Shown piece by piece: positions 2,950-31,321 of a stretch of 64,000 nucleotides of DNA. Numbering within the stretch: the first letter of the stretch is position 1; each line of letters opens with the position of its first letter. The position numbers and the translations under genes are program-made. Under the pieces are notes generated by a model. It ran no database searches. It saw only the letters and a list, made by a program, of their open reading frames with translations, and was not told the DNA's origin. Source of the DNA: Pseudomonadota bacterium (GTDB taxonomy: Bacteria; Pseudomonadota; Alphaproteobacteria; Rhodobacterales; Rhodobacteraceae); assembly GCA_039026235.1 (NCBI GenBank), contig JBCCMQ010000008.1, positions 62,771 to 126,770 on the forward strand, given 5' to 3'.

Positions 2950-3042
2950 GATTTAAGCTAATATGTTGGCAACGCCGCCCGCAACCGGCGGCTGCCCTCA
3001 ACTGCCCGCCCGGGTTCCCTGAACGCACCAGCGCACATTGCT

Positions 3043-3843: not shown

Positions 3844-3953
3844 GGATCAGACGTGGCACGGGAATTGGGAGTTGTTTTGAGATCGAATTACTGTAGCTTG
3901 GTTTTTATGCAAAAATCGAGACCAAAAGTCTCATTTTTTAGCATTGGGGAGAT

Positions 3954-5555: not shown

Positions 5556-5696
5556 CACGGAATTTGGGCAGCAAAGGGCATTTCGGCAAAGAACCGAAGC
5601 CCTGGGCAAAGGAGTAACTGGAAACGCCGGGCGCAGCGCCTTCGTCTCCCGGCTCAACGATCGAACAAGAAGGCTACGAACACAGGGAGGAGAACC

Positions 5697-6791: not shown

Positions 6792-6868
6792 AACGCAGCT
6801 GAAAGAATGGAAGGCGCGGCGCCTGCCGGGCCTTCCCACCAAACACGCGGCCAACGGGGACAAGTGGC

Positions 6869-13613: not shown

Positions 13614-14164
13614 TCCGCTCGGAAGTTCTGAAAGAAATCGCCCCGATCCTTCGAGACCAGCTGGTGGTCTGCAACATTGGCATTCCCAGCCAGGAACTGC
13701 ATGCGATCGACGACCAGCCAACCAATTTCTACATGCTCGGCACCATGGGTCTGGCATCGTCCATCGGTCTGGGTCTGGCGCTGGCCCAACCCAAGCCTGT
13801 GATCGCCATCGACGGCGATGGATCGGTCCTGACGAACCTTGGGACGTTGCCGACCATCGCCAACAATGTGGCGGACAACTACATCCTCTTGATTGTCGAC
13901 AACGGTTCTTATGGTTCGACCGGCGACCAGCCCACCTATACCGGCAAGAAAACCTCTCTGGCCGGAATGGCACAGGCGGCCGGATGTGAACATGTCGTCG
14001 AATGCAGGGCTGAAGATACCGGGCCGGTTCTTCAGGCAGCGCTCGATGCCGGGCAGATGACCATCATCATCTGCAAGTGTGAAAGCGGCAATGCGAAGAT
14101 GCCGGTGATCGAGATGGATCCGGTGACCATACGCGACCGGTTTATGGGCGCCGTCAAAGCCTAG
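13610..14164 (+). CDS. comE: ThDP-dependent sulfopyruvate (or phosphonopyruvate) decarboxylase, beta subunit
   Basis: An internal ATG at 13610 in ORF 13268-14164 gives a 184-aa protein, MIRSEVLKE.... The ThDP-binding motif is IDGDGSVLTNLGTL...IVDNGSYGSTG. The longer ORF extension overlaps comD in another frame and is not credible. Confidence 0.7.
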   Translation: MIRSEVLKEIAPILRDQLVVCNIGIPSQELHAIDDQPTNFYMLGTMGLASSIGLGLALAQPKPVIAIDGDGSVLTNLGTLPTIANNVADNYILLIVDNGSYGSTGDQPTYTGKKTSLAGMAQAAGCEHVVECRAEDTGPVLQAALDAGQMTIIICKCESGNAKMPVIEMDPVTIRDRFMGAVKA

Positions 14165-17131: not shown

Positions 17132-18709
17132 ATGCGCATGCAGTCGCGTAGACATCCATCCACTTCAGCCGTCCAGCTCGTTTGGTTCAAGCGGGACCTG
17201 CGCGTTCAGGACCATCGTGTACTGGCACGGGCCGCGAAAGAAGGCGACGTCCTTCCGATTTACGTTGTCGAACCGGACCTCTGGAAACAGTCCGATATGT
17301 CCGGACGGCAGTGGGCATTCGTGCGCGAGTGCCTTGTCGACCTAAGGGACCAACTGGGCGCCTTGGGACAGCCACTGGTGGTGCGGCGTGGAGACGTGAC
17401 CGACGTATTCGACGAACTCAACCGCGCATTTGGTGTTGCTGCTTTGTGGTCGCACGAAGAGACAGGCAATGACTGGACCTACAGACGCGACAAGCGCGTT
17501 GCCGATTGGTGCCGCGACAAGGGTATCGCGTGGCATGAGATCCAACAGAACGGAACCCAGCGTCGCCTGAAGAACCGGGATGGTTGGGCAAAGGCTTGGG
17601 ACGCATATATGGCGGAGCCCCAGACCGAACCGCCCCTACTACGGCCACTGTCTGATATTGCAGCCAATGACATCCCAACTTCACGTGATCTCGGCCTTGC
17701 CGAAGATTATTGCCCCGGACGTCAGGCGGGCGGGCGGGACGCGGGGCTAGAGCGTCTGGAGTCTTTTCTCCTAGAACGCGGCCGGAACTATCGGTCAGAC
17801 ATGTCGAGCCCGCTTGCCGGTGCGACCTCTTGTTCGCGTATTTCACCGTATCTGGCGTGGGGGTCGCTCTCGATGAGAGAGGTCGCGCAAAGGAGCTGGG
17901 CAAGGCAGCGCACGCTCAAACAAATGCCCAAGGCAAGCAGTCGCACTTGGCGCGGTTCACTGACGTCATTTTCCGGGCGGCTTCATTGGCATTGTCATTT
18001 CATCCAGAAGCTCGAAGACGAACCGCGGCTAGAGCGCGAGGATCTGCATCCCGCCTATGCCGGTTTGCGCCCGCTTGAACCGGATGCCGAACGGCTGGCC
18101 GCCTGGGCAAAGGGCGAGACCGGTTTGCCCTTTGTCGATGCTTGCATGCGTTCGCTCGCGGCGACGGGTTGGTTGAATTTTCGCATGCGGGCAATGGTCA
18201 CGGCTACGGCGAGCTATCATCTTTGGCTCGATTGGCGCAAACCGGGCGAACACCTGGCGCGGCAGTTTACCGACTATGAACCGGGTATCCACTGGCCCCA
18301 GGTTCAGATGCAATCGGGCACGACGGGCATTAACACGGTCCGTATCTATAATCCCGTCAAGCAAGGATATGATCAGGATCCCGACGGGCAGTTTGTGCGC
18401 CGCTGGGTCCCAGAACTCGACGGCATTGACCCCGAGCACTTGCAAGAGCCTTGGAAGGCCGCGAACGCCAGCGAGATCATGGGAAAGATCTATCCGTTCC
18501 CAATCGTTGATCACCTGGCCGCCGCGAAAGAAGCGCGCCAAAAAATCTGGGCTGTCAGACGTGGCAGTGAGTTTCGCAGCCAGGCAAAAGCCATTCAGCA
18601 AAAGCACGGGAGCCGGAAAAGCGGCATTCCCACGCGCGGCCGGAGCCCCTCGAAAAAACCAAACGGTGATCAGCTCAGTCTTGCGCTTGGTCCGGCGGGC
18701 ACACCGTGA
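17132..18709 (+). CDS. cryptochrome/photolyase-family FAD protein
   Basis: 525 aa with an N-terminal alpha/beta domain (LVWFKRDLRVQDHRVLARA) and an FAD-binding domain (SRISPYLAWGSLSMREV, RLHWHCHFIQKLEDEP, WLNFRMRAMV). The subclass cannot be assigned from sequence alone. Confidence 0.8.
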   Translation: MRMQSRRHPSTSAVQLVWFKRDLRVQDHRVLARAAKEGDVLPIYVVEPDLWKQSDMSGRQWAFVRECLVDLRDQLGALGQPLVVRRGDVTDVFDELNRAFGVAALWSHEETGNDWTYRRDKRVADWCRDKGIAWHEIQQNGTQRRLKNRDGWAKAWDAYMAEPQTEPPLLRPLSDIAANDIPTSRDLGLAEDYCPGRQAGGRDAGLERLESFLLERGRNYRSDMSSPLAGATSCSRISPYLAWGSLSMREVAQRSWARQRTLKQMPKASSRTWRGSLTSFSGRLHWHCHFIQKLEDEPRLEREDLHPAYAGLRPLEPDAERLAAWAKGETGLPFVDACMRSLAATGWLNFRMRAMVTATASYHLWLDWRKPGEHLARQFTDYEPGIHWPQVQMQSGTTGINTVRIYNPVKQGYDQDPDGQFVRRWVPELDGIDPEHLQEPWKAANASEIMGKIYPFPIVDHLAAAKEARQKIWAVRRGSEFRSQAKAIQQKHGSRKSGIPTRGRSPSKKPNGDQLSLALGPAGTP

Positions 18710-18861
18710 AAACGAAGCGAAAAGCCGATCTGCCGACCAAGACATGTGCGGCCTGCGCGCGCCCGTTTTCGTGGCGCAGAAAGTGGGCGAAGGTCTGGGA
18801 TGAAGTGCGCTACTGCTCTGAAAGGTGCAGGCGCTCTGCCAAGTCGGGGGACCGCGCTTGA
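18706..18861 (+). CDS. DUF2256 zinc-ribbon small protein (51 aa; absent from the ORF track because it is under 60 aa)
   Basis: A GTG at 18706 overlaps the photolyase stop (GTGA). The translation is VKTKRKADLPTKTCAACARPFSWRKKWAKVWDEVRYCSERCRRSAKSGDRA, with CxxC...CxxxC spacing and the RKKW..WDEV.YCS.RC pattern of DUF2256. That family is commonly linked to photolyase genes. Confidence 0.7.
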   Translation: MKTKRKADLPTKTCAACARPFSWRRKWAKVWDEVRYCSERCRRSAKSGDRA

Positions 18862-20111
18862 CCCAGCTCAACCTGTTTGGTGACCGTTCGCTGGCATCCG
18901 TCACATGGACGGGCGAAAGGGCGGCGGCGGTCGACCGATTGAAAACCTTCCTGCCCCGGGCCGGTCGGGACTATGCCGCCCGCCGCAACTATGATTTGGG
19001 TCGCGCAGACCGCTCGAATGTCTCTTGCCTCTCGCCCTGGATCCGCCACCGGCTACTTTTGGAAGAAGACGTGCTGCGTGCCACACTCGATCGGCATGCG
19101 CCGTCCAGTGCAGACAAGTTCGTTCAAGAGGTCTTCTGGCGGGCCTACTTTAAAGGATGGCTGCAACATCGCCCAAGTGTCTGGTTCAGCTACCGGGCTG
19201 AGATCGACCGACTTATCGAGACCCTAGAGCGTTCGCCTGAAATGAATGCTCTCTACAAAACGGCAGTCCAAGGAACCACAGGCATTGACTGCTTTGATGC
19301 CTGGGCGAAAGAGCTTGTTGAAACGGGCTATCTCCACAACCACACCCGCATGTGGTTCGCGAGCATCTGGATATTTACCCTTCGCCTTCCCTGGCAGCTT
19401 GGCGCTGATTTTTTCTACCGAAACCTGCTCGACGGGGATCCGGCATCGAACACATTGTCCTGGCGCTGGGTGGGCGGGCTGCACACGAAAGGCAAAACCT
19501 ACCTCGCCCGCAAATCGAACATCGAAAAGTACACCGAAGGTAGATTTTCCCCCATCGGGTTGGCCGGTTCGGCGCCCGCCCTTGTCGAAGACGAACACCA
19601 CGCCCTCCAGCCTAAGCCTTCCGGAATGCCTTTAGTCAGTGCCAAGCCCTTCGCACTGATCCTCACCGAAGAGGACTGCAACGCAGAAAGCCTGCCTTTG
19701 CCCGGGAAGCCCAAGGGTATCTGTAGTCTCGGCGCAACGGCGGCCCGCTCATCATTGGAGGTCGGTGCACAGGCCCAAAAATTTACCGCTGAGGCGATGG
19801 CGGACGGCCTTGATCGCGCGCGGGACCACTTTCAGTGCGACGGCCAGCAAATCGAAACCAAAGACTGGGGACCTTTCCTCGTGGACTGGGCGCAGGAACT
19901 GGGTGTCGACACAATTCTCACCGCCCAAGCGCCCATCGGACCGACACGAGAGCACATCGACGGGGCCCGCACCGCCCTGAAGAGTGCAGGAATTACCCTT
20001 GCCGAGATCGGACGCCCCTATGATGAAGCCTGTTGGACCTATGCCACCAAGGGTTTCTTCGGGCTCAAGGCCAAAATCCCGCATCTTGTAGAAAAGCTAG
20101 ACCTTGGCTGA
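18858..20111 (+). CDS. photolyase-related FAD-binding domain protein (atypical domain order)
   Basis: Photolyase FAD-domain motifs lie in the N-terminal half (FVQEVFWRAYFKGW, TGYLHNHTRMWFASIWIFTLRLPWQLGADFF...DGDPASNTLSWRWVGG). The start is uncertain: the ORF opens at 18825, and a TTG at 18858 overlaps the DUF2256 stop (cTTGA). Confidence 0.7.
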   Translation: MTQLNLFGDRSLASVTWTGERAAAVDRLKTFLPRAGRDYAARRNYDLGRADRSNVSCLSPWIRHRLLLEEDVLRATLDRHAPSSADKFVQEVFWRAYFKGWLQHRPSVWFSYRAEIDRLIETLERSPEMNALYKTAVQGTTGIDCFDAWAKELVETGYLHNHTRMWFASIWIFTLRLPWQLGADFFYRNLLDGDPASNTLSWRWVGGLHTKGKTYLARKSNIEKYTEGRFSPIGLAGSAPALVEDEHHALQPKPSGMPLVSAKPFALILTEEDCNAESLPLPGKPKGICSLGATAARSSLEVGAQAQKFTAEAMADGLDRARDHFQCDGQQIETKDWGPFLVDWAQELGVDTILTAQAPIGPTREHIDGARTALKSAGITLAEIGRPYDEACWTYATKGFFGLKAKIPHLVEKLDLG

Positions 20112-20260: not shown

Positions 20261-20306
20261 TGGTGCCGCTGAAGGGACTCGAACCCCCGACCCCATCATT
20301 ACGAAT
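20261..20306. repeat. distal att repeat: 46-bp perfect copy of the 3' half of tRNA-Thr (not a functional tRNA)
   Basis: tggtgccgctgaagggactcgaacccccgaccccatcattacgaat is identical to 31144-31189. Identity ends exactly at 20260/20307. The 5' half of the tRNA is absent here. Confidence 0.9.
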
Positions 20307-20465
20307 TAAATTTCTAGAGTTGTAGACGGTCGCAGTGCGTAGTGAAACACTGTGTTTCCTGATTGAAGTGGCTGTTTTTATTGAAATATTGCACGTGTCT
20401 AGTAGCTATCAATCGCACACAAGCGCGGTAGAAAAAACACCCAAACAACACCCAAGGATAGCAAC

Positions 20466-21671
20466 TTGCCCAAGATTTCCATGACGATGAAGAAGATCGA
20501 AAGCCTGCCTGTCCCGAAGACTGGCCGGGTCGATTACACAGACGCGGACAACCGTGGGCTTACCCTTCGTGTCAATCACAACGGCACAAAAACATGGTCG
20601 TTGCTGTACCGTGTGGTGGGCGAGAAGCTAAACGCGAAAGGCGACCCAATACGCGGCGATCAACGGCGAATTACACTGGGTTCCTACGATTTATTGGGCT
20701 TAGCTGATGCGCGTGAAAAGGCTCGTGACATCATGAAAATCGCCAATAGTGGTACCGACCCAAAAGAAAGTGCCCGCAGTGCGGCGCTGAGGCGGATCGA
20801 CGGGACGGTCGAAAAGGTTGCAGAGGAGATGTGCGATCTGTCGATGGTAAAGTCGATAGAACAGATGCGCCGTTACTTTCGGCTGCATATCAACCCAAGG
20901 TTTGGGCGACGACCGATGCAAGACATTACCCTTGCTGAAATCAATGAGCATTTGGATCAGTATGTTCGGGACGGGCAAGCACCGACTGCGCGAAGCATTT
21001 CAGCATACCTTCATAAGCTGTGGAAGTTCGCCCACCAGCGTGGCCGGGTCGATGTCAACATAATGCTGAGCCTTGATCGTGATGACATTGCATATGAACC
21101 ACGCTCAAGGATCTTGTCTGATGAAGAACTTAAGATCGTTTGGGCAGCGACACAGAGCATGACACCCCCTTATGGCCAACTTGCTCAGTTACTAATGCTG
21201 ACTGGTCTTCGAAAAAATGAAGTGTCGCAGGCCCGGTGGGACGAGGTTGATGAAACCCGCCGTGGAATAGTCGTCCCTGAAAATCGTGCCAAGAATGGTG
21301 AAACTTTGTTGGCACCTTTCTCTGATAAGGCGTGGGACATTCTTCAGTCGATGCGCGATCGTGGTGGGCCATACATCTTTTCGACGACAGGCGGTGAAAA
21401 GCCAGTATCACCCGGTGGAAGGCACTTTCCAAAGATGCTTCGCTCCGCTTGCGGCAACGACATGGAACACTTCACCCCGCATGATCTGCGCCGGACATTG
21501 CGCACAAACTTGGCTGGGCTCGGTGTGGATGAAATCGTTTCTGAAAGGGTTATAGGTCACAAGCTGCAAGGCGTCGCCGCGGTCTACAATCGCTATCACT
21601 ACACCGAAGAACGGCGTGATGCTCTCAATCGTTATGCCCAGCACTTGGAGGGTTTGATTGATGAGCAGTAA
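20466..21671 (+). CDS. int: tyrosine integrase, P4-type (DUF4102 arm-binding N-terminus)
   Basis: 401 aa. The N-terminus, DADNRGLTLRVNHNGTKTWSLLYRV, is typical of P4-like integrases. Catalytic motifs are LTGLRKNEV (R), HDLRRTLRT (HxxR) and VIGHKLQGVAAVYNRYHY (H...Y). The track start is a TTG; ATGs at 20481 and 20487 are alternatives. Confidence 0.9.
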   Translation: MPKISMTMKKIESLPVPKTGRVDYTDADNRGLTLRVNHNGTKTWSLLYRVVGEKLNAKGDPIRGDQRRITLGSYDLLGLADAREKARDIMKIANSGTDPKESARSAALRRIDGTVEKVAEEMCDLSMVKSIEQMRRYFRLHINPRFGRRPMQDITLAEINEHLDQYVRDGQAPTARSISAYLHKLWKFAHQRGRVDVNIMLSLDRDDIAYEPRSRILSDEELKIVWAATQSMTPPYGQLAQLLMLTGLRKNEVSQARWDEVDETRRGIVVPENRAKNGETLLAPFSDKAWDILQSMRDRGGPYIFSTTGGEKPVSPGGRHFPKMLRSACGNDMEHFTPHDLRRTLRTNLAGLGVDEIVSERVIGHKLQGVAAVYNRYHYTEERRDALNRYAQHLEGLIDEQ

Positions 21672-22380
21672 AGCAATAGCCGAAAAGGTTGGCTCGCCAG
21701 TGACTGTCGAAGAAGTGGAGGCGCTTATGCGCTTTGCCGGGATATTGTTCGATCAAGTTCAGAGCGACGCCAAAAAGCTGACTTCAGGGTCTGAACGTAC
21801 ACCCTACGACTACACGGAATACGGTAAGTACCGCGAAGATGATCTACCGCTATTTTCCCCTCAGCCGGGCAAACGCGGGCCAAAGGAGAAACCTGTTCGT
21901 ATGTTCTTGCGGCACTTCTTTCCAATCATCGAATACATGATGTCCAGCACTCATGAGCGGATCGAAGATCGAGTGGCTGTCAAAAAGGCGAACTGGTGGG
22001 TCGAAGGCGGAAAACGTGTCCATGATGGCGGAACAAAAGTGGCAGAAGAAGATCAGTTCGACGCACTCAACCAACTTGGAAAATTAGCTTTCCTTATCAC
22101 TAAGGAATTCTACCCAAACGTTTCCATTGGCGGAAAAACAGATCGCTCCAAGAACCGCGACGGCGACTTTCACGCAGTTCTGCACCCTAAAGGGCTACCG
22201 TATCAACTTACCCCAAGAGAAGTTCAGCGGCTCAAGGAAATGCGTACAGTTCAGACCTTCCTAGAGGATTTGATAGCCGAACGCGGTTTGGTTGGATGCG
22301 AAGAATACTTAATGCGTGACCCGGTCCGGTGGGAAGCTGAAGTTGCTGAATTGAGGAAGCAAATACGATCCGAAAAGTGA
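21658..22380 (+). CDS. hypothetical protein (island orphan)
   Basis: 240-aa ORF that overlaps the end of int by 14 nt. Its codon usage is consistent with the island. I recognise no motif. Confidence 0.5.
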   Translation: MMSSKAIAEKVGSPVTVEEVEALMRFAGILFDQVQSDAKKLTSGSERTPYDYTEYGKYREDDLPLFSPQPGKRGPKEKPVRMFLRHFFPIIEYMMSSTHERIEDRVAVKKANWWVEGGKRVHDGGTKVAEEDQFDALNQLGKLAFLITKEFYPNVSIGGKTDRSKNRDGDFHAVLHPKGLPYQLTPREVQRLKEMRTVQTFLEDLIAERGLVGCEEYLMRDPVRWEAEVAELRKQIRSEK

Positions 22381-22453
22381 ATTAATACTACCGCGATTAT
22401 GAGCGGCTGACAGGCGTAGGTTTGTGCAGACAACAGCACAAGGAACCTGACCA

Positions 22454-22681
22454 ATGTCGTACCATCTGATAACAAAAGAAGAAGTCCTGAAGCGGACTTC
22501 AATCAACCCCCATTCACTGCGTGGCATGTGGGAACGTAACCTATTTCCCAAACCGGTGAAGCTTAGCGCAAAGTGCATCCGCTTTGTTGAAAGCGAAGTC
22601 CAAAACTGGCTTGACGCAAAGATGATCGCAGCGGGAAAGACGATCCCCGATCAACCAACGTTGTGTGACGACAAATTGTAA
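22454..22681 (+). CDS. alpA: AlpA-family phage regulatory protein / excisionase-like HTH
   Basis: 75 aa. LITKEEVLKRTSINPHSLRGMWERNLFPKPVKLSAKCIRFVESEVQNWL matches the AlpA pattern (...FPKPvkl....W.esEv..Wl). Confidence 0.75.
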   Translation: MSYHLITKEEVLKRTSINPHSLRGMWERNLFPKPVKLSAKCIRFVESEVQNWLDAKMIAAGKTIPDQPTLCDDKL

Positions 22682-22743
22682 TGGGACCGGCGTGGCCCGC
22701 CAGATACTGAGGCAAAACGCGCCCGGTCCTCCTAATCGGAGGA

Positions 22744-25341
22744 TTGCACTTGAAAGATAATTTGAAAGTGTCCCCAGTCGCGTTCGTTTCGCGCCTGCAC
22801 GAAGGATACAACCGATCCGGGATTGTGGCGTTTCCGCCGGGTGCAAAGAAGCCTGTGGCCCGGAACTTCAACCTGTTCCACGGCGATGGGCAAATCAGAG
22901 CTGGTGGATTTGTTCAGGTTCATTCTGAAGGGAACCTGTATTTCCAGTTGAACCCGGCCATGGACAACATTTCGTCACAGGCCAAGCAAAGCCGGGCCAC
23001 GACGAAAGATGTCATCGCGTTCCATGTGGACATAGACCCTGACCCGTTACCGGCCCACCACAAGGTCAAAGACCCTGTGGAATGGACCAAGATGGAACAA
23101 GAGCGCATTCATGGGCTGTTGACCTACAATCTGCCCAAGGGTGCCCCGGAACCGTCGATCATCATCTTTTCAGGTGGTGGCTTTCAAGCGATCTGGCTTC
23201 TAAGGGAACCGATCAGGATCAACGGTGACATCGGTGTGGCTGAAGACGCCGCCTTATACAACGTGAAGCTGGAATGGCTGTTTGGGGCCGACAACACCCA
23301 CAACATTGACCGCTTGCTTCGACTTCCGGGAACGATGAACCGACCCCATCCGGCCAAGCGAAAGAAAGGCCGGACGGACGAAATGGCGCGACTGATCAAG
23401 TGTGACTTTGATCTGCGCTATGACCTGTCTGAATTCCAGAAGGGTAAGAAGTCCTTCGCCATGTCGGAAGACATGTCCAAGATCGACATCAGTGAAGTCC
23501 GGCACCCGGACGCCGCTGAAGTCGAAGGGCTGTTGAAGGCATGGAACGAAGGCAAGCCCAAAGACATCCAGCGCGACCCGGCCACCTTCATGGCGATGCT
23601 GGGCGAAGGTCGGGGGATCAAACCGAAGGAAAAGGACGACAGCCGTTCCGCTTGGTGGTTCGACGCCGCTTGTCACCTTCAACGGATCGGTCTGGATAGC
23701 GGTGGCATCGTGGGCATCATGTCCAACCCTGACCTGAAGATCAGCGAAAGCATGTATCACAACGCGGATGGTGTGGTCATCCCGAACCCCATCGGGACCA
23801 CGATCCGACAAGTGAAGCGCGCGATCCACCGGGTCGATCACGACGACGAATTGAAGGATCAGGAACGCGAAGAAACGAACGGAAGCTGGCTGGAATACAT
23901 GAACGACCGCTATTGTGTCGTTAAGTCCGAAGGCGGGAAGACCCGTGTCTTCAGTTGGGGCTTGTCCGATTTGGTGGACCCCGCGACCCTTGAAGACGGC
24001 GAGGAAGTGAAGTTCCAACAGCCCACCCTTCAGACGTTCGGGGACATCCAGCAAGCCTATGTGAACCAGAAGGTCATGGTTCTGAAGATGACCCGTGATG
24101 GCCCAAAGGAAGTCCCGGTGGGCTTGGGTCACTGGTGGCTGGAACACCCAGAACGCCGAACCTACCAATCCCTGAAATTCGCGCCCCATGTTGACGAACA
24201 GGTTATCCAGATCGGTGGCAATGAATACCTGAACCTGTGGAACGGATTTGGGGTTGATGCTGCCCAAGGAAGCTGGAAGCGCATGCAAGATCACATCCTT
24301 CACCAAGCGGCCAAGGGCAACAAAGAACACTATGACTACATCATCAGGTGGCTGGCCTTCGCAGTCCAGTTCCCAGAAAAACAGGCCGAAGTTGCGCTGA
24401 CGTTTCGGGGAAGCAAGGGCACAGGAAAGGGTGTCATTGGGCGCGCGATGTGCAAGCTGTTTGGGAATGCTGGACTTCAGGTCAGTTCATCATCGCACCT
24501 GACCGGCAAGTTTAACGCCCACCTTCGTGGGAAGGTCATCCTGTTCGCTGATGAAGCCGTGGCCCCGGATGATCGCCACAGCGAAGCCGCCCTGAAGCGG
24601 AACATCACCGAAGACACCTTGACCATTGAAATGAAGGGATATGACCCGATCCCCGGCCCGAACATGCTTCACATCATCATCGCGGGCAACGATGACATGG
24701 TGATCCGTGCGACCGCAGACGAACGGCGATACGCGGTCTTCGAAATCAACGAAAAGAAGGACCAGAACTACTACAAAGCCCTGTATCAGGAAATGAACCA
24801 CGGCGGTTATGAAGCCATGTTGTACGACCTTCAGCGCGTGGACCTGACTGGCTGGCACCCTCGCCAGAACATCCCGAACACGGACGCTCTTCAAGCGCAG
24901 AAACTACATGGGCTGAAGCCGACCGAACGCTGGCTGTTTGAAATCCTTCAGTCTGGTGAACTTGCCGGGACTTCAGCAGTCAAACAAGCGCACAGTTTGC
25001 GGAAAACCGTGATGTCCAACGCCCAACCAGCACGGGATAGCAATGGGCGTCTGGTCGGCGGTATGGTCCCCGGACTTTATGACACCATGCGGAAGGCCGT
25101 CCCCGGCTTGCGCGATCAAGACAATCAGGTCTTTGCGTCTTTCCTGAAGGAATGGGGATGTACGAACCACCGCGACACAGGGACCGGGAAGCCTTCCTAT
25201 TGGTTGTTCCCCACCCTGAAAGAAATGCGTGGGCTGTTTGAAGCCAAGTTCGGCCATATCGACTGGGGCACAATCACCGACTGGGACGGCGCTCATCACG
25301 AAACAGCACGACCCGGCGAACAGAAGGAAGCAGCGGTTTGA
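22744..25341 (+). CDS. AEP primase-polymerase fused to SF3 (D5/P4-like) helicase
   Basis: The N-terminus carries AEP motifs: FHVDIDPD (DxD), FSGGGFQAIWLL and LLRLPGTMN. The C-terminus carries SF3 NTPase motifs: Walker A FRGSKGTGKGV and Walker B VILFADEA. A TTG at 22750, 7 nt after GGAGGA, is a likely true start. Confidence 0.8.
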   Translation: MHLKDNLKVSPVAFVSRLHEGYNRSGIVAFPPGAKKPVARNFNLFHGDGQIRAGGFVQVHSEGNLYFQLNPAMDNISSQAKQSRATTKDVIAFHVDIDPDPLPAHHKVKDPVEWTKMEQERIHGLLTYNLPKGAPEPSIIIFSGGGFQAIWLLREPIRINGDIGVAEDAALYNVKLEWLFGADNTHNIDRLLRLPGTMNRPHPAKRKKGRTDEMARLIKCDFDLRYDLSEFQKGKKSFAMSEDMSKIDISEVRHPDAAEVEGLLKAWNEGKPKDIQRDPATFMAMLGEGRGIKPKEKDDSRSAWWFDAACHLQRIGLDSGGIVGIMSNPDLKISESMYHNADGVVIPNPIGTTIRQVKRAIHRVDHDDELKDQEREETNGSWLEYMNDRYCVVKSEGGKTRVFSWGLSDLVDPATLEDGEEVKFQQPTLQTFGDIQQAYVNQKVMVLKMTRDGPKEVPVGLGHWWLEHPERRTYQSLKFAPHVDEQVIQIGGNEYLNLWNGFGVDAAQGSWKRMQDHILHQAAKGNKEHYDYIIRWLAFAVQFPEKQAEVALTFRGSKGTGKGVIGRAMCKLFGNAGLQVSSSSHLTGKFNAHLRGKVILFADEAVAPDDRHSEAALKRNITEDTLTIEMKGYDPIPGPNMLHIIIAGNDDMVIRATADERRYAVFEINEKKDQNYYKALYQEMNHGGYEAMLYDLQRVDLTGWHPRQNIPNTDALQAQKLHGLKPTERWLFEILQSGELAGTSAVKQAHSLRKTVMSNAQPARDSNGRLVGGMVPGLYDTMRKAVPGLRDQDNQVFASFLKEWGCTNHRDTGTGKPSYWLFPTLKEMRGLFEAKFGHIDWGTITDWDGAHHETARPGEQKEAAV

Positions 25342-25394
25342 TTTCGGTCCAGTTGGCCGCTTTTGGGCGATAAGTCCCAATACGGACTGCGGTG

Positions 25395-25691
25395 AACAGG
25401 GGTTTCTTGATTTGGACAGGGAACCTTTGTCCATTTTTATCATATTAAAACAATATGTTAGTAGTTATTTCTGCCCATGGACAGGGGGATCGGGGGGGTC
25501 CGCATATCAGCACATCAGGTGGGAACCGAAACTCCTGAGTTTTTGTGGTGTCTCTGAAGCCCAAGCTTCCGGCTTCTATACACCCCTGTATCCTATGTAT
25601 CCCCTGCTCATAAGGAGATAAGAATCTGAAAATAATAGATAATAGCCGGACAGTGGTCGGGACAGGGGTTGGGCTTTAGGACAGGGGTCGG
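25395..25691. repeat. putative replication origin: GGACAG(G/T)GG iterons flanking AT-rich tracts
   Basis: Direct copies lie at 25414, 25479, 25648, 25660 and 25679, with a near copy (AACAGGGG) at 25395. AT-rich stretches lie at about 25431-25473 and 25612-25647. The region is immediately downstream of the primase-helicase gene. Confidence 0.55.
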
Positions 25692-25974
25692 AGGTTTTTT
25701 GTGCTTGGATGCACGCACACAGGGCAACAAGGACGAAATATGCATGAGCGCACGAAAGCAGCGATCCCCACTGCCTCACCGATCTAAAAACGGCACTATT
25801 GAACCATTCCGAGGCCACTTAATGCTCAATGATAGGTTTTGGAAACGTAAGTGGCTGTTTTGAAGTTATTTTCGTTCTTCCGGGGCGCTGCTTGGGTGTT
25901 TTGAGGGAGTTTTTTCACCCAGCACAATTAATACTACCGGGAATTCCAAACGGCAGAACCAGTAGTTTCTGCCC

Positions 25975-26487
25975 ATGTATGAAACGCATCTTATCCAACT
26001 CGCGTATCGCGACCAAGATCAGCCCGGTGAGCCATGGATGGTCACCGATGCTGGCCGTGATTTGGTCCGCAAGGATCGGTCGAATGGTGTCGCACAGGCA
26101 GTGATCGCGGGTCGCTTGGGGATGTCCAGTCGGACCTTCCGTGATGTCCTTGATCGTTGTGAAGCTACCCGTGCGGCGTATGACGAAGGCACTGGGCTGA
26201 TGGAAACCGAACTGGTGTCCTTGCTCATGCAACACGCCCGCGACGGAGATCGCACATCCATCATCTTTGCGCTGAAGGCGCTAGCCGGAAAGCGGGAAGT
26301 TGGTCCGTCACCAGACGCGCCAGCAACGGCCAACCAGCCGTCGATCAATATCACGATCCCACCGGCGTTGTCGTCCGCTGACCTACGGGCGCTGACAGAC
26401 AGCATGCGCACCGTGTCGCCAGATGATGCAGCACCGGATGCGTCCACGGACGACAGGCCTACTAAGCGAAAGAAGGTGATCCGATGA
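25975..26487 (+). CDS. putative small terminase / HTH DNA-binding protein
   Basis: 170 aa with an HTH-like segment (VAQAVIAGRLGMSSRTFRDVL), a SIIFALKALAGKRE segment resembling TerS motifs, and a basic tail. It is the first gene of an overlapping operon that ends with TerL. The assignment is by position and weak similarity only. Confidence 0.45.
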   Translation: MYETHLIQLAYRDQDQPGEPWMVTDAGRDLVRKDRSNGVAQAVIAGRLGMSSRTFRDVLDRCEATRAAYDEGTGLMETELVSLLMQHARDGDRTSIIFALKALAGKREVGPSPDAPATANQPSINITIPPALSSADLRALTDSMRTVSPDDAAPDASTDDRPTKRKKVIR

Positions 26488-26735
26488 ATGACCGCCCCCC
26501 AACCCACCCTTGGGATATGGACCTGATCGACGCCAAGGAATGGGTAGTCCGAACCTTGTTGGAGGCCGCGCGGTCGCCAGAACAGATCGAAGTCGCGGTT
26601 CAGCTTGGTGCGATGGTTCGTCTGGGTTGGATCGAACACATCATCCGCAAACAGAAGCTTGCGTTCATCCGTGCGCAAAAGAAGGCCCATCGGGCCAAGG
26701 CGCTCGCACAAAAGGCAAGGAAGGACGACCGATGA
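26484..26735 (+). CDS. hypothetical small protein (packaging operon)
   Basis: 83 aa. It has 4-nt overlaps with both neighbours (26484-26487 and 26732-26735) and a basic C-terminus. Confidence 0.45.
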   Translation: MNDRPPTHPWDMDLIDAKEWVVRTLLEAARSPEQIEVAVQLGAMVRLGWIEHIIRKQKLAFIRAQKKAHRAKALAQKARKDDR

Positions 26736-27007
26736 CCTACAACCCCGCCCAGTGGGACTTATACGATCCCACGCCGCCCGCTGATCTAAACGATCCGGCG
26801 CAGTATTCCGTTGCTACCCAGATCGACCCCGAAACCGGCTTTCCGTTCGTCGAGACACCGGGCGACCTTGGGCATCAAGAATGGCGACCGATCATCGGTT
26901 ATCGCAACGCCGTGACGGGCGCGCAGCTATTCGGCGCTGTCCGTGTGGGCCGACCCGTCTTCACCAGCGGTAATAGTGCTGACGGCACCGCTACCCGCGC
27001 ACGATAG
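26732..27007 (+). CDS. hypothetical small protein (packaging operon)
   Basis: An internal ATG at 26732 (ATGA overlap with the preceding stop) gives 91 aa, MTYNPAQWDLYDP.... The upstream extension of ORF 26510-27007 overlaps the previous gene. Confidence 0.45.
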   Translation: MTYNPAQWDLYDPTPPADLNDPAQYSVATQIDPETGFPFVETPGDLGHQEWRPIIGYRNAVTGAQLFGAVRVGRPVFTSGNSADGTATRAR

Positions 27008-27020
27008 GAACCTCTGACAG

Positions 27021-28472
27021 ATGACCAACACCCTTTCCACGTCCGCCGAACCTGTCGTGATGTCCGCCCCAGCGGCGATGGAACACAATCCGAAGTCGTT
27101 CCTTGCTGACCAGTGGTTGCAGCAAGTGGACATCGTGCATCATGGCGGATCACGCGGTTCGGGAAAAACGACAGGCGCGATCTTGTCCTTGCTGCGCATC
27201 GTCTTGGAACAGGGTGCGACGGCGCGTGTGTTTGTGGGGCGCGAAAGCCATGCTGGTTGCATCCAGCTTGGCAACGAACTCTTTCTGATGCTCTGCCTTG
27301 CCTTTGGGCAAGGGAACGTGTCCCGAAACCAGAACGCTGGCACGATCAGCATCAAATTTCCTGAAGGCATCGCTAGTGTTGAAATCCGGCCCTTCAGCGA
27401 CACCAAGCAATACGCCTCAATTCAGGGCAAGACCTACACCGCCGCTCTTTTCGATGAAGCCGGGAACTATTCCAAGGCAGGTTGGGATTTGATGTGGCAG
27501 ATCATGTCGAACATGCGCGGCCCGGAAGGAATGCGTCTGCCGGTTCTGATCTTGTCCAACCCCTTCGGTGCCTCTCATGGGCGCATCCGCAAGACGTTCC
27601 TTTCGCATGGTTGGTTCCAGCCGTGGACGGACGACAGTGGGCTGACATACATCAACATCCAGTCCACGCTGTTCGACAACCCGCACATTGATCACAAGGC
27701 ATATGTCGCCCGCCTCAAGCGGTCTTGTGCCGGGAACCAGCCCAAAGAACGCGCATGGATTTACGGGGAGTATGGAAACAACCTGTCGTCCTTCTTCGGC
27801 AATCAGTATGACCCCAACGTCCACCTTCTTCCCGCTGATCTGATCGCCGCCGATCTGATGCAATATCGCCCCATCCTTGGGGGGTCTGGGGACTGGGGCA
27901 CCAGAAGCGCCTGTGCGGGCTTCATTGGCCTGAAACTGCGCAGCGACCTGATCATTGCCGACCGTCACTATCGCGCCGGGTCCATCTTCATCTTGGGCGA
28001 ATGCCACACCTTGGCCGACCGTGACATGGAAGACCTGTCCACCGGGACAGGCATCGCGCCGCAAGGTTGGGCCGAATTGATCAAAGACCTTGCCATCAAT
28101 CAGCAAGGCTTGAAGGCCGTGCCGCCGTTTGTGCAGGACAACGCCCGTGGCCTTGCGAACGACACGGTGACAACCCTAATGGCGCAGGCAGGTGTGCCTT
28201 GCCACGTCCCGTCGAAGGATCGGAAGGGCGGGTGGGCCTTGATCACCCAGCTTCTGGATAATGCCACGACCGGCGACGGTCCCGGCCTCTATATCCACCC
28301 GTCTTGTTCCTACCTGCTGGCGACCTTGCCCGACGCCCCTGCGAACCCAAACGACCCATCGGACCTTGATCCGAAGTGGGACGCAGATCACGCGGTCGAT
28401 GCTCTTTCATACCTCTGCACTTTTCTGACCCAACGCCGTGTCAGGCGCGGTCGAATTCGCGGCGATTACTGA
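27021..28472 (+). CDS. terL: phage terminase large subunit (TerL)
   Basis: 483 aa with Walker A GGSRGSGKT, Walker B TAALFDEAG, and a C-terminal RNaseH-like nuclease with acidic residues (GGSGDWG ... DADHAVDALSYL). Confidence 0.8.
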   Translation: MTNTLSTSAEPVVMSAPAAMEHNPKSFLADQWLQQVDIVHHGGSRGSGKTTGAILSLLRIVLEQGATARVFVGRESHAGCIQLGNELFLMLCLAFGQGNVSRNQNAGTISIKFPEGIASVEIRPFSDTKQYASIQGKTYTAALFDEAGNYSKAGWDLMWQIMSNMRGPEGMRLPVLILSNPFGASHGRIRKTFLSHGWFQPWTDDSGLTYINIQSTLFDNPHIDHKAYVARLKRSCAGNQPKERAWIYGEYGNNLSSFFGNQYDPNVHLLPADLIAADLMQYRPILGGSGDWGTRSACAGFIGLKLRSDLIIADRHYRAGSIFILGECHTLADRDMEDLSTGTGIAPQGWAELIKDLAINQQGLKAVPPFVQDNARGLANDTVTTLMAQAGVPCHVPSKDRKGGWALITQLLDNATTGDGPGLYIHPSCSYLLATLPDAPANPNDPSDLDPKWDADHAVDALSYLCTFLTQRRVRRGRIRGDY

Positions 28473-28501
28473 TCGTCACCCCAACCTTGAAAGGAAAGCA
28501 A

Positions 28502-29380
28502 ATGACAACTGAACTTGAACAAACCGCAACTGAACCTGAACAGATGACAGCCCCGCCGCCGAAGGCCCCCATCGACACCGCCGCGCGGAAAAAACGGGTT
28601 GCGGCCTTGCCCCCAGCGTCCCGCTACCCATTGGGCGCACAGGGTCAAATCTTCGTGCCGATGGCTGAAAGCATTCAGGCCGCTGGACCGCGCGCTGAAG
28701 CCATGTTGCGGGACATCCTGTCCACGCTGGAAAGTGCCCAGAAGGTGATGGACACCTGTGCTGACGCTGAAGACGCTGTGATCAGTTCCGAAAACCAGCT
28801 TCGCCAAGGTGCGAACGCTGACATCGGTCGGTTGGCCATGGTTGATGGGCGCGTGTCATCCATTCCCGGTCGCTATGACGAACTGGCGCGGGCCATGGGA
28901 CCGGCCATCGACAAAGAAATCACCAACTTGGACGCGCGGATCAAGCGCCACAACGATCACATGCTGGCCATGTTGGCCGAAATGGATGCGGCGCTGGTCT
29001 GCAATTGGACCGAAGGCGACAAGAACCTGAAGGCACAGGTCCGGGAACACATGCTGACCCTGACCAAACCCCAACGGAAGGCGTTCATGTCCAAGGCGGC
29101 GACTGAAGGCGATCTGGTGGCGATCCACACGATCCTGACATCCCCGACCTACCTGATGGGCATCGCGGAAACGGACATTGGCGACTTCCGAGAAACCGCC
29201 CGAAAGTTCATCAAACCGGAAAGCTGGAAAGCCTTCGAAGGGGGCAAGAAAGCCGAAAAGGCCATGGGACTGGCGAAGAAGTCGCTGGTCGAAAAGAAGG
29301 CCCGTGTCGAACGCTACCGGCTGGAAGACCAGAAACAAGCCACGGACGCCCTGAACGCCATCAGGACGCTACCGACATGA
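28502..29380 (+). CDS. hypothetical alpha-helical protein downstream of TerL
   Basis: ATG at 28502 is preceded by AAAGGAAAG. The 292-aa protein is charged and probably coiled-coil, with no motif I recognise. A scaffold or size-redirection role is speculation. Confidence 0.55.
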   Translation: MTTELEQTATEPEQMTAPPPKAPIDTAARKKRVAALPPASRYPLGAQGQIFVPMAESIQAAGPRAEAMLRDILSTLESAQKVMDTCADAEDAVISSENQLRQGANADIGRLAMVDGRVSSIPGRYDELARAMGPAIDKEITNLDARIKRHNDHMLAMLAEMDAALVCNWTEGDKNLKAQVREHMLTLTKPQRKAFMSKAATEGDLVAIHTILTSPTYLMGIAETDIGDFRETARKFIKPESWKAFEGGKKAEKAMGLAKKSLVEKKARVERYRLEDQKQATDALNAIRTLPT

Positions 29381-29479
29381 CAGGATGGCTTCGCTTAAAG
29401 GTTGTCTTCAATCTCACCCTGTTTGGGTAGAAGCCTCAACCGGTTAAGGCTTACCAGTTTAATGGCACTCATCAACTTC

Positions 29480-30094
29480 CTATGGCGCCCGCGTAGCCAA
29501 AAAGACAACGGCTAGTTCACGCCCATAGTGCCAACCGAACCTGTGCGTTCGACGCAGCGATATGAAGGTGGCGAAGGCCAAGAGTGAAACCGCGATCCAG
29601 TCACTTGTTGAGACCGCGCATACGACGGTCAAAATGATTAACGAGGCCGACAAGCCTCGCATCATCCCATAAATCCCGTTGAATTTGTCGATCCGGTTGG
29701 AATGTCCCGACGCCGCGACCCGCGCATAGACCTCGCGCATCGCAGCACGCGCTTCTGTCCTTGATACTGTTTCGCCTATGACGCCGTCCTCACGCAGAAT
29801 TCCAACGAAACGCGCATGCTGCTCACTCGTCAAAGACTCGCCATCCAATACCCGCTTGCTCGGCAATCCACCAAAGGGCCACCAAAGTAGTGTTTCGACG
29901 GTGTTCCCAACACCCTGTACAAGCTGCCCCAGAGCATACGATATTACCACAAACAGACCCAGTTCACCGAACGTGAAGCCGTCGGGGCCGAGGTATGCTT
30001 GAAGTTCCGGAAGCAACCACATTGCCCCGAAGGCCAAAACCGAGCCGGGGACGATGATCCCCGCGTATTCGTAGAACTCAAACGAAACGTTCAC
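29480..30094 (-). CDS. 4-TM membrane protein, partner of the MBL-fold hydrolase (unknown function)
   Basis: A GTG start at 30094 overlaps the upstream stop (GTGA). The 204-aa protein has hydrophobic helices YAGIIVPGSVLAFGAMWLL, LGLFVVISYALGQLVQGV, LSASLIILTVVCAVS and WIAVSLLAFATFISL around a soluble loop of about 90 aa. Confidence 0.6.
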   Translation of the reverse strand: MNVSFEFYEYAGIIVPGSVLAFGAMWLLPELQAYLGPDGFTFGELGLFVVISYALGQLVQGVGNTVETLLWWPFGGLPSKRVLDGESLTSEQHARFVGILREDGVIGETVSRTEARAAMREVYARVAASGHSNRIDKFNGIYGMMRGLSASLIILTVVCAVSTSDWIAVSLLAFATFISLRRTHRFGWHYGRELAVVFLATRAP

Positions 30095-30930
30095 GCAGCG
30101 ATGTTCAGCAGCACCGAGCCGCCTCCCATTTGGTTCAAGTGGAAACGCATTGTGCCATCGCTTCGCGTCGTGAGAACCTTACGCTGCTGTCCATTGTACT
30201 GAAAGCCTTTGGAATGACGTCGGTACAGATCGGTCGTCTCTTGGGTTTGAAAGACTTTTCCCTCATCAGAAATGATGACAGCTTGGATGTTTGGGCAGAG
30301 AGCCATTAGTTCTTCACAGTAGCCGTTTGCCCTACCGTGATGGGAAGCAACGAAGAGATTTACATCGAACAATTCAGCTATGAACGACGGGTCCCGCATT
30401 AGGGCTTTCCAACCCGGCCGTTCTAGGTCGCCGGGGAACAGGACCTTATGCGGCCCACACTTCACAAAGATGGCCAGGCTTAGATTGTTGGTGTCTGTAA
30501 AGCCAAACCTTGGGCTGAATTGGTTCCAATACACGGTGAAGGAAGTATCGCCGAAATCGTATGCTTGTACGCCAAGCGGTGGGCCGCCAGTAAATGTGTT
30601 CAGCATAGCGTTGTGCAAAAGTGCTATGCCATGACCCATACCGTGCTCTGATTTCATGGATGCTAGTTCACGAGGACCGACAGTTGCGTTGGTGGCTAAG
30701 ACATCCACATCCACGTTTCGCATTAGGTTACCAAATCCGGAAACATGGTCTTCGTCGAAGTTCGTGACATACAGCTTATCCACCACACTTATCCCCATAG
30801 CGGAAAGAGCGGTTCCGGGGTACCAACGGTTATGGGCATGGTGGCCGCAGTCGATTAGAACTTGTCGTCCATTGCTTGTCGAGATCAGTGCGCAAGCACC
30901 GTGGTCAACGTCGAATACATTAAGAAGCAT
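30091..30930 (-). CDS. standalone metallo-beta-lactamase-fold hydrolase, ComEC/Rec2 C-terminal-domain type
   Basis: ATG at 30930 lies 6 nt after GGAGG; the track start at 30942 is an upstream GTG. Motifs are DHGACALI..LIDCGH, NFDEDHVSG, FPGDLE and ASHHGRANG, in the order and spacing of the ComEC-like MBL domain. Confidence 0.75.
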   Translation of the reverse strand: MLLNVFDVDHGACALISTSNGRQVLIDCGHHAHNRWYPGTALSAMGISVVDKLYVTNFDEDHVSGFGNLMRNVDVDVLATNATVGPRELASMKSEHGMGHGIALLHNAMLNTFTGGPPLGVQAYDFGDTSFTVYWNQFSPRFGFTDTNNLSLAIFVKCGPHKVLFPGDLERPGWKALMRDPSFIAELFDVNLFVASHHGRANGYCEELMALCPNIQAVIISDEGKVFQTQETTDLYRRHSKGFQYNGQQRKVLTTRSDGTMRFHLNQMGGGSVLLNIAA

Positions 30931-31143
30931 GGCAGCCTCCACTACAGTTTGCGTTTACCTCCCCGACAGCCACAAAATATCGCAGATTCGCGCATGAGTC
31001 GAGTCCGCGTCGTTCTTTATTTGTTCCAAGGCATTAATCGCGCTCGCAATCTAAGCGTCTGGCGTTTCTTTCCAAAAAAACACCCAGCACAACACCCCGC
31101 AGGCTCAGCAGGAACCCAAGTTTTGTGTAAGTGCTTGAGAAGA

Positions 31144-31189
31144 TTGGTGCCGCTGAAGGGACTCGAACCCCCGACCCCATCATTACGAA
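31144..31189. repeat. proximal att repeat (3' 46 nt of tRNA-Thr)
   Basis: Identical to 20261-20306. It spans from the CCA end through the anticodon loop. Confidence 0.9.
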
Positions 31190-31219
31190 TGACGTGCTCT
31201 ACCAGCTGAGCTACAGCGG
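31144..31219 (-). tRNA. tRNA-Thr (anticodon CGU)
   Basis: The reverse complement is GCCGCTGTAGCTCAGCTGGTAGAGCACGTCATTCGTAATGATGGGGTCGGGGGTTCGAGTCCCTTCAGCGGCACCA. It folds as a cloverleaf: 7-bp acceptor GCCGCTG/CAGCGGC, D stem GCTC/GAGC, anticodon loop TTCGTAA, T loop TTCGAGT and an encoded CCA. Confidence 0.95.
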
Positions 31220-31321
31220 CCTTCGGGCCGACCGGCGGCCTGACGAAGTATTGCGCGCCGCTTCTACCGATTTGGGCCCCAAGGTCAACCGCGATCCGTC
31301 GGCTGAGAGCTTTAGCGGCGG

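Follow-up and report, generated by a model that had tools for sequence, protein, structure and literature searches.

How might an integrated element spread that encodes a DNA-packaging motor and no recognisable part of the particle into which such a motor would pump? This question is raised by an island of 10.9 kb in a Rhodobacteraceae genome (assembly GCA_039026235.1, contig JBCCMQ010000008.1), which was analysed within a stretch of 64,000 nucleotides (positions 62,771 to 126,770 of the forward strand of the contig), called here the window and used for all coordinates. The island sits in a tRNA-Thr gene and encodes a tyrosine integrase, an AlpA-type regulator, a replication protein, a large terminase subunit (TerL), a probable small terminase subunit (TerS) and a 292-aa protein, orf292, whose relatives follow TerL in related islands. 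From this gene content and that of its relatives we consider it reasonably probable that the island is a helper-dependent phage satellite that encodes a complete terminase itself and lacks virion genes. Three aspects of this picture are new beyond the initial annotation of the locus, namely the large orphan family linked to TerL, the compensation between module lengths and a duplicated control box.

A terminase operon without virion genes

The packaging module consists of five co-oriented genes (25975-29380), the first three of which overlap by 4 nt. Its central product is a 483-aa protein (27021-28472, plus strand) with an ATPase and a putative RNase-H-like nuclease domain, which significantly matches the curated TerL profiles phrog_2 (5.9e-17, residues 34-476) and phrog_979 (6e-14). 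TIGR01547 is matched with 6.6e-7 and, like Pfam Terminase_6N, below its cut-off (29 vs 105 and 19.5 vs 22 bits, respectively), and homologues of the protein carry PF03237 or PF04466. The ATPase domain contains a Walker A motif, GGSRGSGKT (G43-T50), and a Walker B motif, FDEAG (D145, E146), of which six residues, G43, R45, S47, K49, D145 and E146, do not vary across 12 sequences with identities down to 25%. The same set shows no variation at the putative nuclease residues D291 and D456-H457-D460 either, and ratios of nonsynonymous to synonymous substitution rates (dN/dS) of 0.06-0.16 indicate strong purifying selection on the gene. The initial annotation of the protein as a bona fide TerL was reproduced. 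The island TerL is at most 25% identical to any match in 50,697 phage genomes; a profile search of the PDB gave no match, and a search of the PLSDB plasmids only one unrelated match at 23% identity.

The operon is headed by a gene for a 170-aa DNA-binding protein (25975-26487, plus strand), considered TerS-like on the basis of its AlphaFold2 (AF2) model and its operon position. The model comprises a beta-hairpin, a three-helix helix-turn-helix (HTH) and a long helical hairpin, with a predicted local distance difference test (pLDDT) score of 70.7, and of 85-91 over residues 21-80. Its top PDB folds are those of the small terminase (gp1) of phage Sf6, 3hef and 4dzj, at probabilities of 0.91 and 0.89 and non-significant E values of 0.2-0.3, and the protein has no TerS match in Pfam or PHROG. 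The gene heads the TerL operon in every related island (the relatives, with locus numbers beginning with L, are described below), directly adjoins terL in L009, L020, L022, L023 and the true phage L032, and evolves with a dN/dS of 0.17-0.22. The 170-aa HTH protein is therefore a probable TerS, its position beside TerL being a stronger argument than its predicted fold. Two small genes separate the pair in the window. The first, orf83 (26484-26735, plus strand), overlaps both neighbours by 4 nt and has homologues in L001, L002, L006, L008, L014 and L016. The second, orf91 (26732-27007, plus strand), lies directly upstream of terL, has a dN/dS of 0.30 and no family match in library scans; same-position copies occur in relatives and are 33-71% identical in those of window type (tblastn, blastp).

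The absence of capsid, portal, protease, tail and lysis genes, which the initial annotation had taken as a sign that the element cannot form virions by itself, was borne out by scans of PHROGs, Pfam and NCBIfam, in which none of the 11 island proteins matched such a family. None of the family members examined carries a capsid- or portal-type gene either. The remaining content described earlier was likewise reproduced: an integrase, an orphan gene, AlpA, a primase/helicase, iterons, the overlapping five-gene operon and a cargo pair.

Integration into a tRNA gene

The island is bounded by 46-nt perfect direct repeats (20261-20306 and 31145-31190; spacing 10,884 bp in a repeat search). The right copy, attR, is the 3' 46 nt of an intact tRNA-Thr(CGU) gene on the minus strand (31145-31220; ARAGORN, Rfam 67 bits), which is the only tRNA called by ARAGORN in the window, and the left copy, attL, is a displaced duplicate of this segment, also on the minus strand. 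The repeats run from the 3' CCA end of the tRNA into its anticodon loop, and an exact repeat of this length in 64 kb far exceeds what chance would produce. The duplication of the 3' half of the tRNA had been reported before, with its right copy at 31144-31189; the repeat itself stands, and the right copy has to be moved up by one base. Next to attL lies the gene for a 401-aa tyrosine integrase (20466-21671, plus strand) with Arm-DNA-bind_3 (4.1e-16), Phage_int_M (6e-8) and Phage_integrase (5.4e-14) domains and a match to phrog_1 (3e-55). The combination of Arm-DNA-bind_3 and Phage_integrase domains with a duplicated tRNA 3' end is that of the P4/CP4-57-type tyrosine integrases, in agreement with the P4-type footprint proposed for the site. 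Inside the island the GC content is 0.48-0.60; it is higher, 0.59-0.68, in the adjoining 2 kb to the left and right. Host genes lie next to the island on both sides, with photolyases to the left and a HemY/tetratricopeptide repeat protein to the right. The left flank contains two adjoining genes of the photolyase/cryptochrome family (17132-20111), one encoding 525 aa with DNA_photolyase and FAD_binding_7 domains and the other 428 aa with FAD_binding_7 alone.

A conserved family of islands

The island belongs to a family. A search space of 5.8 billion proteins yielded 12 relatives of TerL, 8 of orf292 and 15 of the TerS-like protein (one of them the window's own protein, on a 167-kb contig of a marine 'Pseudomonadota' metagenome-assembled genome). 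With the loci added by genome and metagenome scans, about 20 loci besides the window contain relatives of TerL, of the TerS-like protein or of the post-TerL protein. Where the available sequence suffices, these loci share one gene order: integrase, a variable orphan, AlpA/HTH_17, primase/helicase, a gap, the terS-like gene, zero to four small genes, terL, the post-TerL gene and variable cargo. Related islands had been expected at tRNA-Thr, and they occur there with three anticodons (CGT, GGT, TGT) and also at tRNA-Arg (CCG, CCT), tRNA-Ser (GCT), tRNA-Gly (GCC) and tRNA-Lys (CTT), hence at no fewer than eight tRNA genes, with tRNA-derived attachment (att) repeats of 29-85 nt. Their TerL proteins are 29-92% identical to that of the window, and dN/dS across the packaging genes is 0.06-0.38. 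If relatives always sat inside complete prophages, the island would have to be regarded as a deletion remnant; where the available sequence suffices, they are instead stand-alone islands, the sole true phage among them being the outgroup L031/L032.

The modules of these islands appear to have been exchanged. The window orf292 is closest to that of L008 (58% identity) and the window TerL to that of L006 (92%), and the mismatched nearest relatives of primase, orf292 and TerL point to frequent recombination among family members. The replication protein of the window, which is RepB-like with a DUF5906 domain, is mostly unrelated to the VapE-type primase of elements with a close TerL (L006, L008, L010, L012 and L016 were compared). 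In L008 (3016-3044 / 13935-13963) and L012 (18-55 / 10568-10605) it is the 5' half of a tRNA-Arg gene that is duplicated, while the others duplicate the 3' half. In these two loci the intact tRNA gene is encoded on the plus strand and located downstream of the element, and the integrase clade seems to have changed the tRNA half that the element replaces. Another locus, L001, has a tRNA-Ser(GGA) gene right after the tRNA-Arg of its island, followed by a different integrase (397 aa, Arm-DNA-bind_3), a 339-aa post-integrase gene and small genes (L001:13863-17128), and these genes look like another island with a comparable layout, integrated at a tRNA gene and cut off by the end of the contig. Finally, L033:5188-5775 and L034:1511-2224 contain only a 237-aa TerL fragment (query residues 126-330, 31% identity in the locus scan), which may represent decayed copies of the family.

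Origin of the packaging pair

The metagenome scan also uncovered a true phage, L031/L032, whose TerS and TerL are homologous to those of the islands and encoded in the order terS-terL. In L032, TerL is followed by a portal protein (phrog_145, 6e-97), a MuF-type head morphogenesis protein, a scaffold, a major head protein (phrog_283, 4e-78), an Ad1 adaptor and tail genes. The TerL of L031/L032 is 24-53% identical to the island TerLs and roots the TerL tree outside all islands. As homologous TerS and TerL occur in a phage outside the islands in this tree, we conclude that the packaging pair was captured from a siphovirus-type head module, the remainder of which is absent from the islands; in most of them an orphan gene stands 3' of TerL. 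The closest island relative of the phage is L030, whose TerL is 53% identical to that of L032 and whose satellite-like region 2251-8599 encodes a small serine recombinase/invertase (phrog_125, 8e-70), a 752-aa protein at the primase position, TerS and TerL, with no detectable tyrosine integrase. The 752-aa protein does not match the island primases by tblastn, and the approximately 1.5 kb between TerL and the contig end contain genes for 95 and 249 aa and no portal gene. L030 may have captured its packaging genes recently, or it may reflect the pairing of a satellite with its helper.

Constant length and a duplicated box

The eight complete elements measure 10,211, 10,323, 10,550, 10,564, 10,814, 10,884, 10,919 and 10,985 bp, with a coefficient of variation of 2.7%. 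Seven of them were split into integrase, replication, packaging and cargo modules, and the summed variance of the modules exceeds that of the total length by a factor of 17. Shuffles of module lengths reached the observed variance in 0.2% of trials (permutation p=0.002), or in 3.7% when the most divergent element was left out, and the lengths of the packaging and cargo modules are inversely correlated (r=-0.83). Such compensation between modules suggests a limit on total length, and the pattern is suggestive of the capacity limit that a capsid would be expected to impose.

A second shared feature is a short box that occurs twice in each element. In the window, copy 1 (AATTAATACTACCGCGA, 22380-22396, plus strand) starts at the stop codon of orf240, the orphan gene that follows the integrase, 57 nt upstream of alpA, and copy 2 (AATTAATACTACCGGGA, 25926-25942, plus strand) lies 32 nt ahead of the terS-like gene, and the two are identical at 16 of 17 nt. 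An element-specific box of 16-36 nt is duplicated in all eight distinct window-type elements that have both regions (the window, L001, L005, L006, L008, L010, L012 and L016). Across these elements, copy 1 is at the stop codon of the post-integrase orphan or at most about 20 nt from it, 43-69 nt before alpA, and copy 2 is 29-46 nt before the terS-like gene. The class of the box tracks the similarity groups of integrase, orphan and AlpA and not those of primase, TerS or TerL, and L006, L008, L010 and L012, with a common primase, have three box classes. Primase iterons and packaging (pac) sites were considered as the identity of the boxes and rejected, because near-identical primases go with different boxes and the class is independent of TerS and TerL. 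A scan with the sigma-70 consensus was not enriched and did not match the boxes. The simplest reading of these patterns is that the boxes constitute a shared promoter or operator through which one regulator of the left module would turn on replication and packaging together. A comparable arrangement exists in P4, which drives two late promoters via the same activator site.

The protein encoded after TerL

The last gene of the operon, orf292 (28502-29380, plus strand), is a family-specific orphan predicted by AF2 to form an all-helical bundle with one beta-hairpin (pLDDT 82.2, predicted template modelling score 0.71) and helices of 40-50 residues. Foldseek searches of PDB and BFVD revealed no significant fold match, PDB profile searches and Pfam and PHROG scans of family members gave no match, and neither did tblastn of orf292 and two distant members against the 50,697 phage genomes. 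The family is nevertheless large: at E<=1e-3, an exhaustive search gave 366 cluster representatives (clustering at 50% identity). In the loci compared a gene of this family always stands 3' of TerL, it evolves with a dN/dS of 0.08-0.38, and hhalign relates orf292 to the same-position gene of the most divergent island, L009, with an E value of 1e-4. Long-helix proteins of other satellites, Sid of P4 and TcaP of the PICI-like elements (PLEs), are external scaffolds that shrink helper capsids, and the likeness of orf292 to them is only a lead to its function. Since the elements keep to a total of 10.2-11.0 kb, near the size of P4, redirection of capsid size is the favoured guess among possible actions of orf292 on the helper capsid or portal.

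Regulatory, replication and cargo genes

The product of orf240 (240 aa, 21658-22380, plus strand, with a 14-nt overlap with the integrase gene) is fast-evolving and has no match in Pfam, PHROG, NCBIfam, PADLOC or PDB. This post-integrase slot is occupied in all elements by genes that can barely be aligned, the similarity groups of which track the class of the duplicated box, making orf240 a candidate regulator. It is followed by alpA (22454-22681, plus strand), encoding an AlpA-family excisionase/transcription regulator of 75 aa (PF05930 2.8e-7, with 30.7 bits where the cut-off is 21; phrog_66 2e-6), and by the gene for an 865-aa replication protein (22744-25341, plus strand). The latter combines an N-terminal primase of the RepB'/archaeo-eukaryotic primase (AEP)-like type with a DUF5906/D5-type superfamily 3 (SF3) helicase (DUF5906 3.6e-19, phrog_1156 9e-44), and its residues 532-686 match PDB entry 6k9c, 'Primase', with 8e-14. 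TIGR01613 (P4-family primase C-terminal, 7e-12) and RepB_primase (2e-3) are matched below their cut-offs, and the motifs HVDIDPD, SGGGFQ and RLPGT were read by eye; the sub-threshold RepB_primase match and these motifs suggest an AEP-like primase-polymerase.

A gap of 634 nt separates the replication gene from the packaging operon. It contains an iteron cluster, the putative replication origin (25384-25691, plus strand), with nine GGACAGGGGT-like sites of up to two mismatches in 305 nt; the other 63.7 kb of the window contain 55. Counted as GGACAGGGG-like iterons with up to two mismatches, nine copies fall within 25384-25688, for which the remainder of the window predicts about 0.3. The region also includes a tandem 12-mer (25648-25673), and related elements have their own iterons at the equivalent position, of a type that tracks the type of primase. 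Behind the primase gene, a hairpin with a nine-pair stem followed by TTTTTAT resembles an intrinsic terminator (25413-25443, plus strand); the terminator scan overall was not enriched over shuffles, and a role of this hairpin as operon boundary is plausible only. An Rfam scan and folding of the origin region revealed no non-coding RNA except the tRNA.

Between the packaging operon and attR, two minus-strand genes overlapping by 4 nt occupy the cargo slot. One (30091-30942) encodes a hydrolase of the metallo-beta-lactamase (MBL) fold that matches PADLOC PDLC04674 (PDC-M48B) over its full length with 2.6e-61, and LmuA, Avs1a and 6A-MBL more weakly. The other (29480-30094) encodes 204 aa without a family match, and the protein appears from hydrophobic stretches read by eye to be membrane-spanning. 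The MBL protein thus has the features of component B of the candidate defence system PDC-M48, whereas in PADLOC no PDC-M48A model matched the adjoining 204-aa protein, which gave only Csx27 at 0.0065; the two genes may form a variant two-gene system. In relatives the slot contains Fic in L001, TIR in L002 and L016, and unknown genes in L010 and L012. Defence-type genes are likewise carried as cargo by P4 and by phage-inducible chromosomal islands (PICIs) (PMC10085698, PMC13586616).

A proposed satellite cycle

In the island, the integrase gene is co-transcribed with the fast-evolving orphan, and alpA-primase and terS-like to terL-orf292 form two operons with one box copy before each and the iteron cluster between them. 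In the cycle that we propose, a factor that travels with the integrase-orphan-alpA module, either AlpA itself or the orphan, would act on both boxes, by which excision and replication on the one hand and packaging on the other would be switched on together, probably upon infection or induction of a helper. Integrase and AlpA would excise the element at the tRNA att site, and its own primase/helicase would replicate the DNA from the iterons. The HTH TerS-like protein would then mark or recognise element DNA, which the element TerL would cut and pump into procapsids of an L032-like siphovirus-type helper by docking on the helper portal, thereby bypassing and competing with the helper terminase. 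The post-TerL protein would act on the helper head or portal, and the slot beside attR would hold exchangeable defence genes that pay the host. More tentatively, and with a little less confidence than doubt, we suggest that the island is the founding example of a widespread undescribed class of satellites with TerS and TerL and without capsid, portal or tail genes, in which the motor docks on a foreign portal, the helical protein of 366 clusters remodels or adapts the helper head, a length of about 10.7 kb is held by module compensation, and the duplicated box forms a one-switch circuit.

Several observations weigh against this account of the island as a helper-dependent satellite. Induction, excision, replication, helper dependence, encapsidation and portal docking are steps that we infer from the anatomy of the island and from comparative data. 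A helper phage was not found, structural genes like those of L032 are absent from the window, and IMG/VR scans with the TerL sequence and with a TerL alignment did not return a relative. Unit-length contigs were considered as excised circles and rejected: both ends of L011 fall within att and terminal overlaps are absent from all contigs, so these ends are assembly breaks. The assignment of the small subunit is weak as far as the fold is concerned (E 0.2), and the role given to orf292 remains a guess. The phage scaffold of L032 is unrelated to orf292 (hhalign was negative with it and with the 249-aa protein of L030), and the sole fold resemblances of orf292 are non-significant ones to alpha-pore-forming toxin bundles of the ClyA/AhlC/Smh type (Foldseek probability up to 0.99, E 0.07-0.1, template modelling score 0.35-0.46); a pore-forming function was rejected because the hairpin is not hydrophobic. 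The size-constraint test comprises seven to eight phylogenetically related elements and is suggestive rather than proof. Moreover, the closest phages, with their portal and MuF head module, look to us like headful packagers, and headful filling of a full-size capsid with concatemers would by itself impose no limit on unit length.

Alternative explanations

The alternative that survives best, although we regard it as unlikely, is an interference or defence island in which the TerS-like protein and TerL mainly sabotage phage packaging by occupying portals or cutting concatemers, the island itself spreading rarely or by vesicles, transformation or generalized transduction. Satellite packaging genes can double as interference factors (PMC10085698; PMC9618062), the cargo slot contains defence-type genes (PDC-M48B, TIR and Fic), and the viral contig collections searched (IMG/VR) gave no relative. 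Such an island, however, has no evident need for an iteron origin and a primase co-regulated with packaging through the boxes, nor for a total length of 10.2-11.0 kb with compensating modules, and the occupation of at least eight tRNA sites with intact att repeats implies frequent movement.

The packaging pair could also load the element into procapsids of a gene transfer agent (GTA) rather than of a phage, a possibility that we consider remote in view of capacity and ancestry. GTAs are common in Rhodobacterales and would provide heads and tails without packaging specificity, the closest taxonomically labelled relatives of the island are Rhodobacteraceae/Paracoccaceae metagenome-assembled genomes (MAGs), and there is no helper prophage nearby in the window. 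Yet heads of the Rhodobacter capsulatus GTA (RcGTA) type hold about 4 kb, far below 10.9 kb, the nearest TerL and TerS relatives that are accompanied by structural genes are part of a head module of ordinary siphovirus type (portal, MuF, scaffold, major capsid protein), and more distant members of the family come from other sources, such as activated sludge.

That the island is a deletion remnant of a prophage, in which integrase, replication and terminase genes were retained by chance, is very improbable and effectively refuted, even though phages are the normal carriers of TerS-TerL pairs and one phage has a related head module. The gene order, the post-TerL orphan and the size of about 10.7 kb recur at many tRNAs and at a TerL identity of about 30%, the genes are intact and under purifying selection between perfect att repeats, and no structural-gene fragments were detected. 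The invariant TerL residues at about 30% identity and the low dN/dS therefore exclude a decaying prophage. An autonomous minimal virus with a capsid made of unrecognised proteins (orf292 or small open reading frames) is the least credible of all, since orf292, although abundant (366 clusters), confidently folded and unassigned in function, is a helical bundle that differs from the HK97 and jelly-roll folds and from other known folds of capsid proteins, the island has no portal-sized gene, and TerL-type motors are not known to occur except with portal-bearing HK97-fold capsids.

Comparison with known satellites

If the island is a helper-dependent satellite, as we favour, it would work like the satellites of the P4 and PICI types, and it falls outside the definitions of both, as well as those of the capsid-forming PICIs and the PICMIs treated below. 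The initial annotation had remarked that a self-encoded TerL without capsid or portal genes is not the standard composition of P4-like or PICI-like satellites, and the SatelliteFinder definitions of both indeed do not cover the island. With P4-like elements it shares a tRNA 3'-end integrase of the Arm-DNA-bind_3 type, AlpA, a primase-SF3 helicase fusion with a nearby origin and a variable defence hotspot, and integrase, AlpA and an alpha-type primase/helicase are components of the SatelliteFinder P4-like definition that the island has. Homologues of sid, psu and delta, by contrast, were not found among the island proteins in PHROG, Pfam or NCBIfam, which leaves the island outside this definition. 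The P4 genome is 11.6 kb long, compared to 10.2-11.0 kb for the islands. P4 is not known to have terminase genes and uses those of P2. The islands differ in having a TerS-like/TerL pair, an unrelated helical orphan and hosts that are MAGs of Alphaproteobacteria type.

The PICIs, which include the Staphylococcus aureus pathogenicity islands (SaPIs) and the Gram-negative EcCICFT073-type islands, resemble the family in the order of integrase, AlpA regulator, primase-replication (pri-rep), packaging and accessory genes, in size and in defence cargo. The integrase-regulator-primase order of the PICI definition is present in the island, and the small-terminase-type protein by which PICIs redirect packaging has a TerS-like counterpart in the islands. 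PICIs contain terS and a capsid-morphogenesis gene and no other phage packaging or structural genes (PMC10085698), whereas all relatives of the island have TerL, and no homologues of the capsid-morphogenesis genes cpm, ppi and rpp were detected in the island. Capsid-forming PICIs (cfPICIs) are the only SatelliteFinder family with terL in its core set, together with terS, int, alpA and pri-rep, and to be called they need 9-11 of the 11 components of this set, among which are the capsid, further head components and the adaptor and connector between head and tail (PMC10085698). The island has terL and terS in common with them, the latter only as a probable assignment, but at most 5 of the 11 components and no further head genes, and in the absence of these genes the heads must come from a helper.

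Other small marine tRNA islands with integrase, AlpA and primase and without a major capsid gene are the virion-encapsidated integrative mobile elements (VEIMEs), the PICMIs (minimalist chromosomal islands that are phage-inducible) and the PICI-like tycheposons. Some VEIMEs carry terS and 'motor-like ATPases', and VEIMEs are packaged as concatemers of 8-17 copies in full-size heads, with units that are mostly shorter and range from <5 kb to 16.8 kb (PMC9618062). VEIMEs, tycheposons and PICMIs have been described with terS or a major capsid protein or neither, and not with TerL, whereas the islands combine TerL with a tight unit length. For PICMIs, a reduced set of genes that does not include capsid-remodelling ones has been described (PMC10803314). 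The island, with a five-gene packaging operon that includes TerL and without a Fis-type Pfam match, falls outside the PICMI definition. PICMIs reportedly also contain a Fis-like gene and no terminase genes. The head module of L031/L032, finally, has homologous TerS and TerL, but the phage continues with portal and further head genes where the islands continue with an orf292-family gene and cargo.

In the literature searched there was no account of TerL-carrying, capsid-less satellites, although coverage was incomplete and an earlier description is possible, and detection tools based on the family definitions of PMC10085698 would probably miss such elements. Compensating module lengths and a duplicated box are predictions that are simple to test and could aid automatic detection. 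Should the proposed cycle hold true, it would provide a functional lead for the large orphan family of orf292, and it would add marine bacteria of Rhodobacterales type to the hosts of satellites with defence cargo, bacteria in which gene transfer is usually credited to GTAs or phages. It would also raise the concrete question of how a TerL that is at most 25% identical to those of sequenced phages recognises the portal of a helper. Known satellites either borrow the large terminase of their helper, as P4, PICIs, PLEs and PICMIs do, or bring a whole head, as cfPICIs do; satellites that bring only the motor would represent a third strategy.

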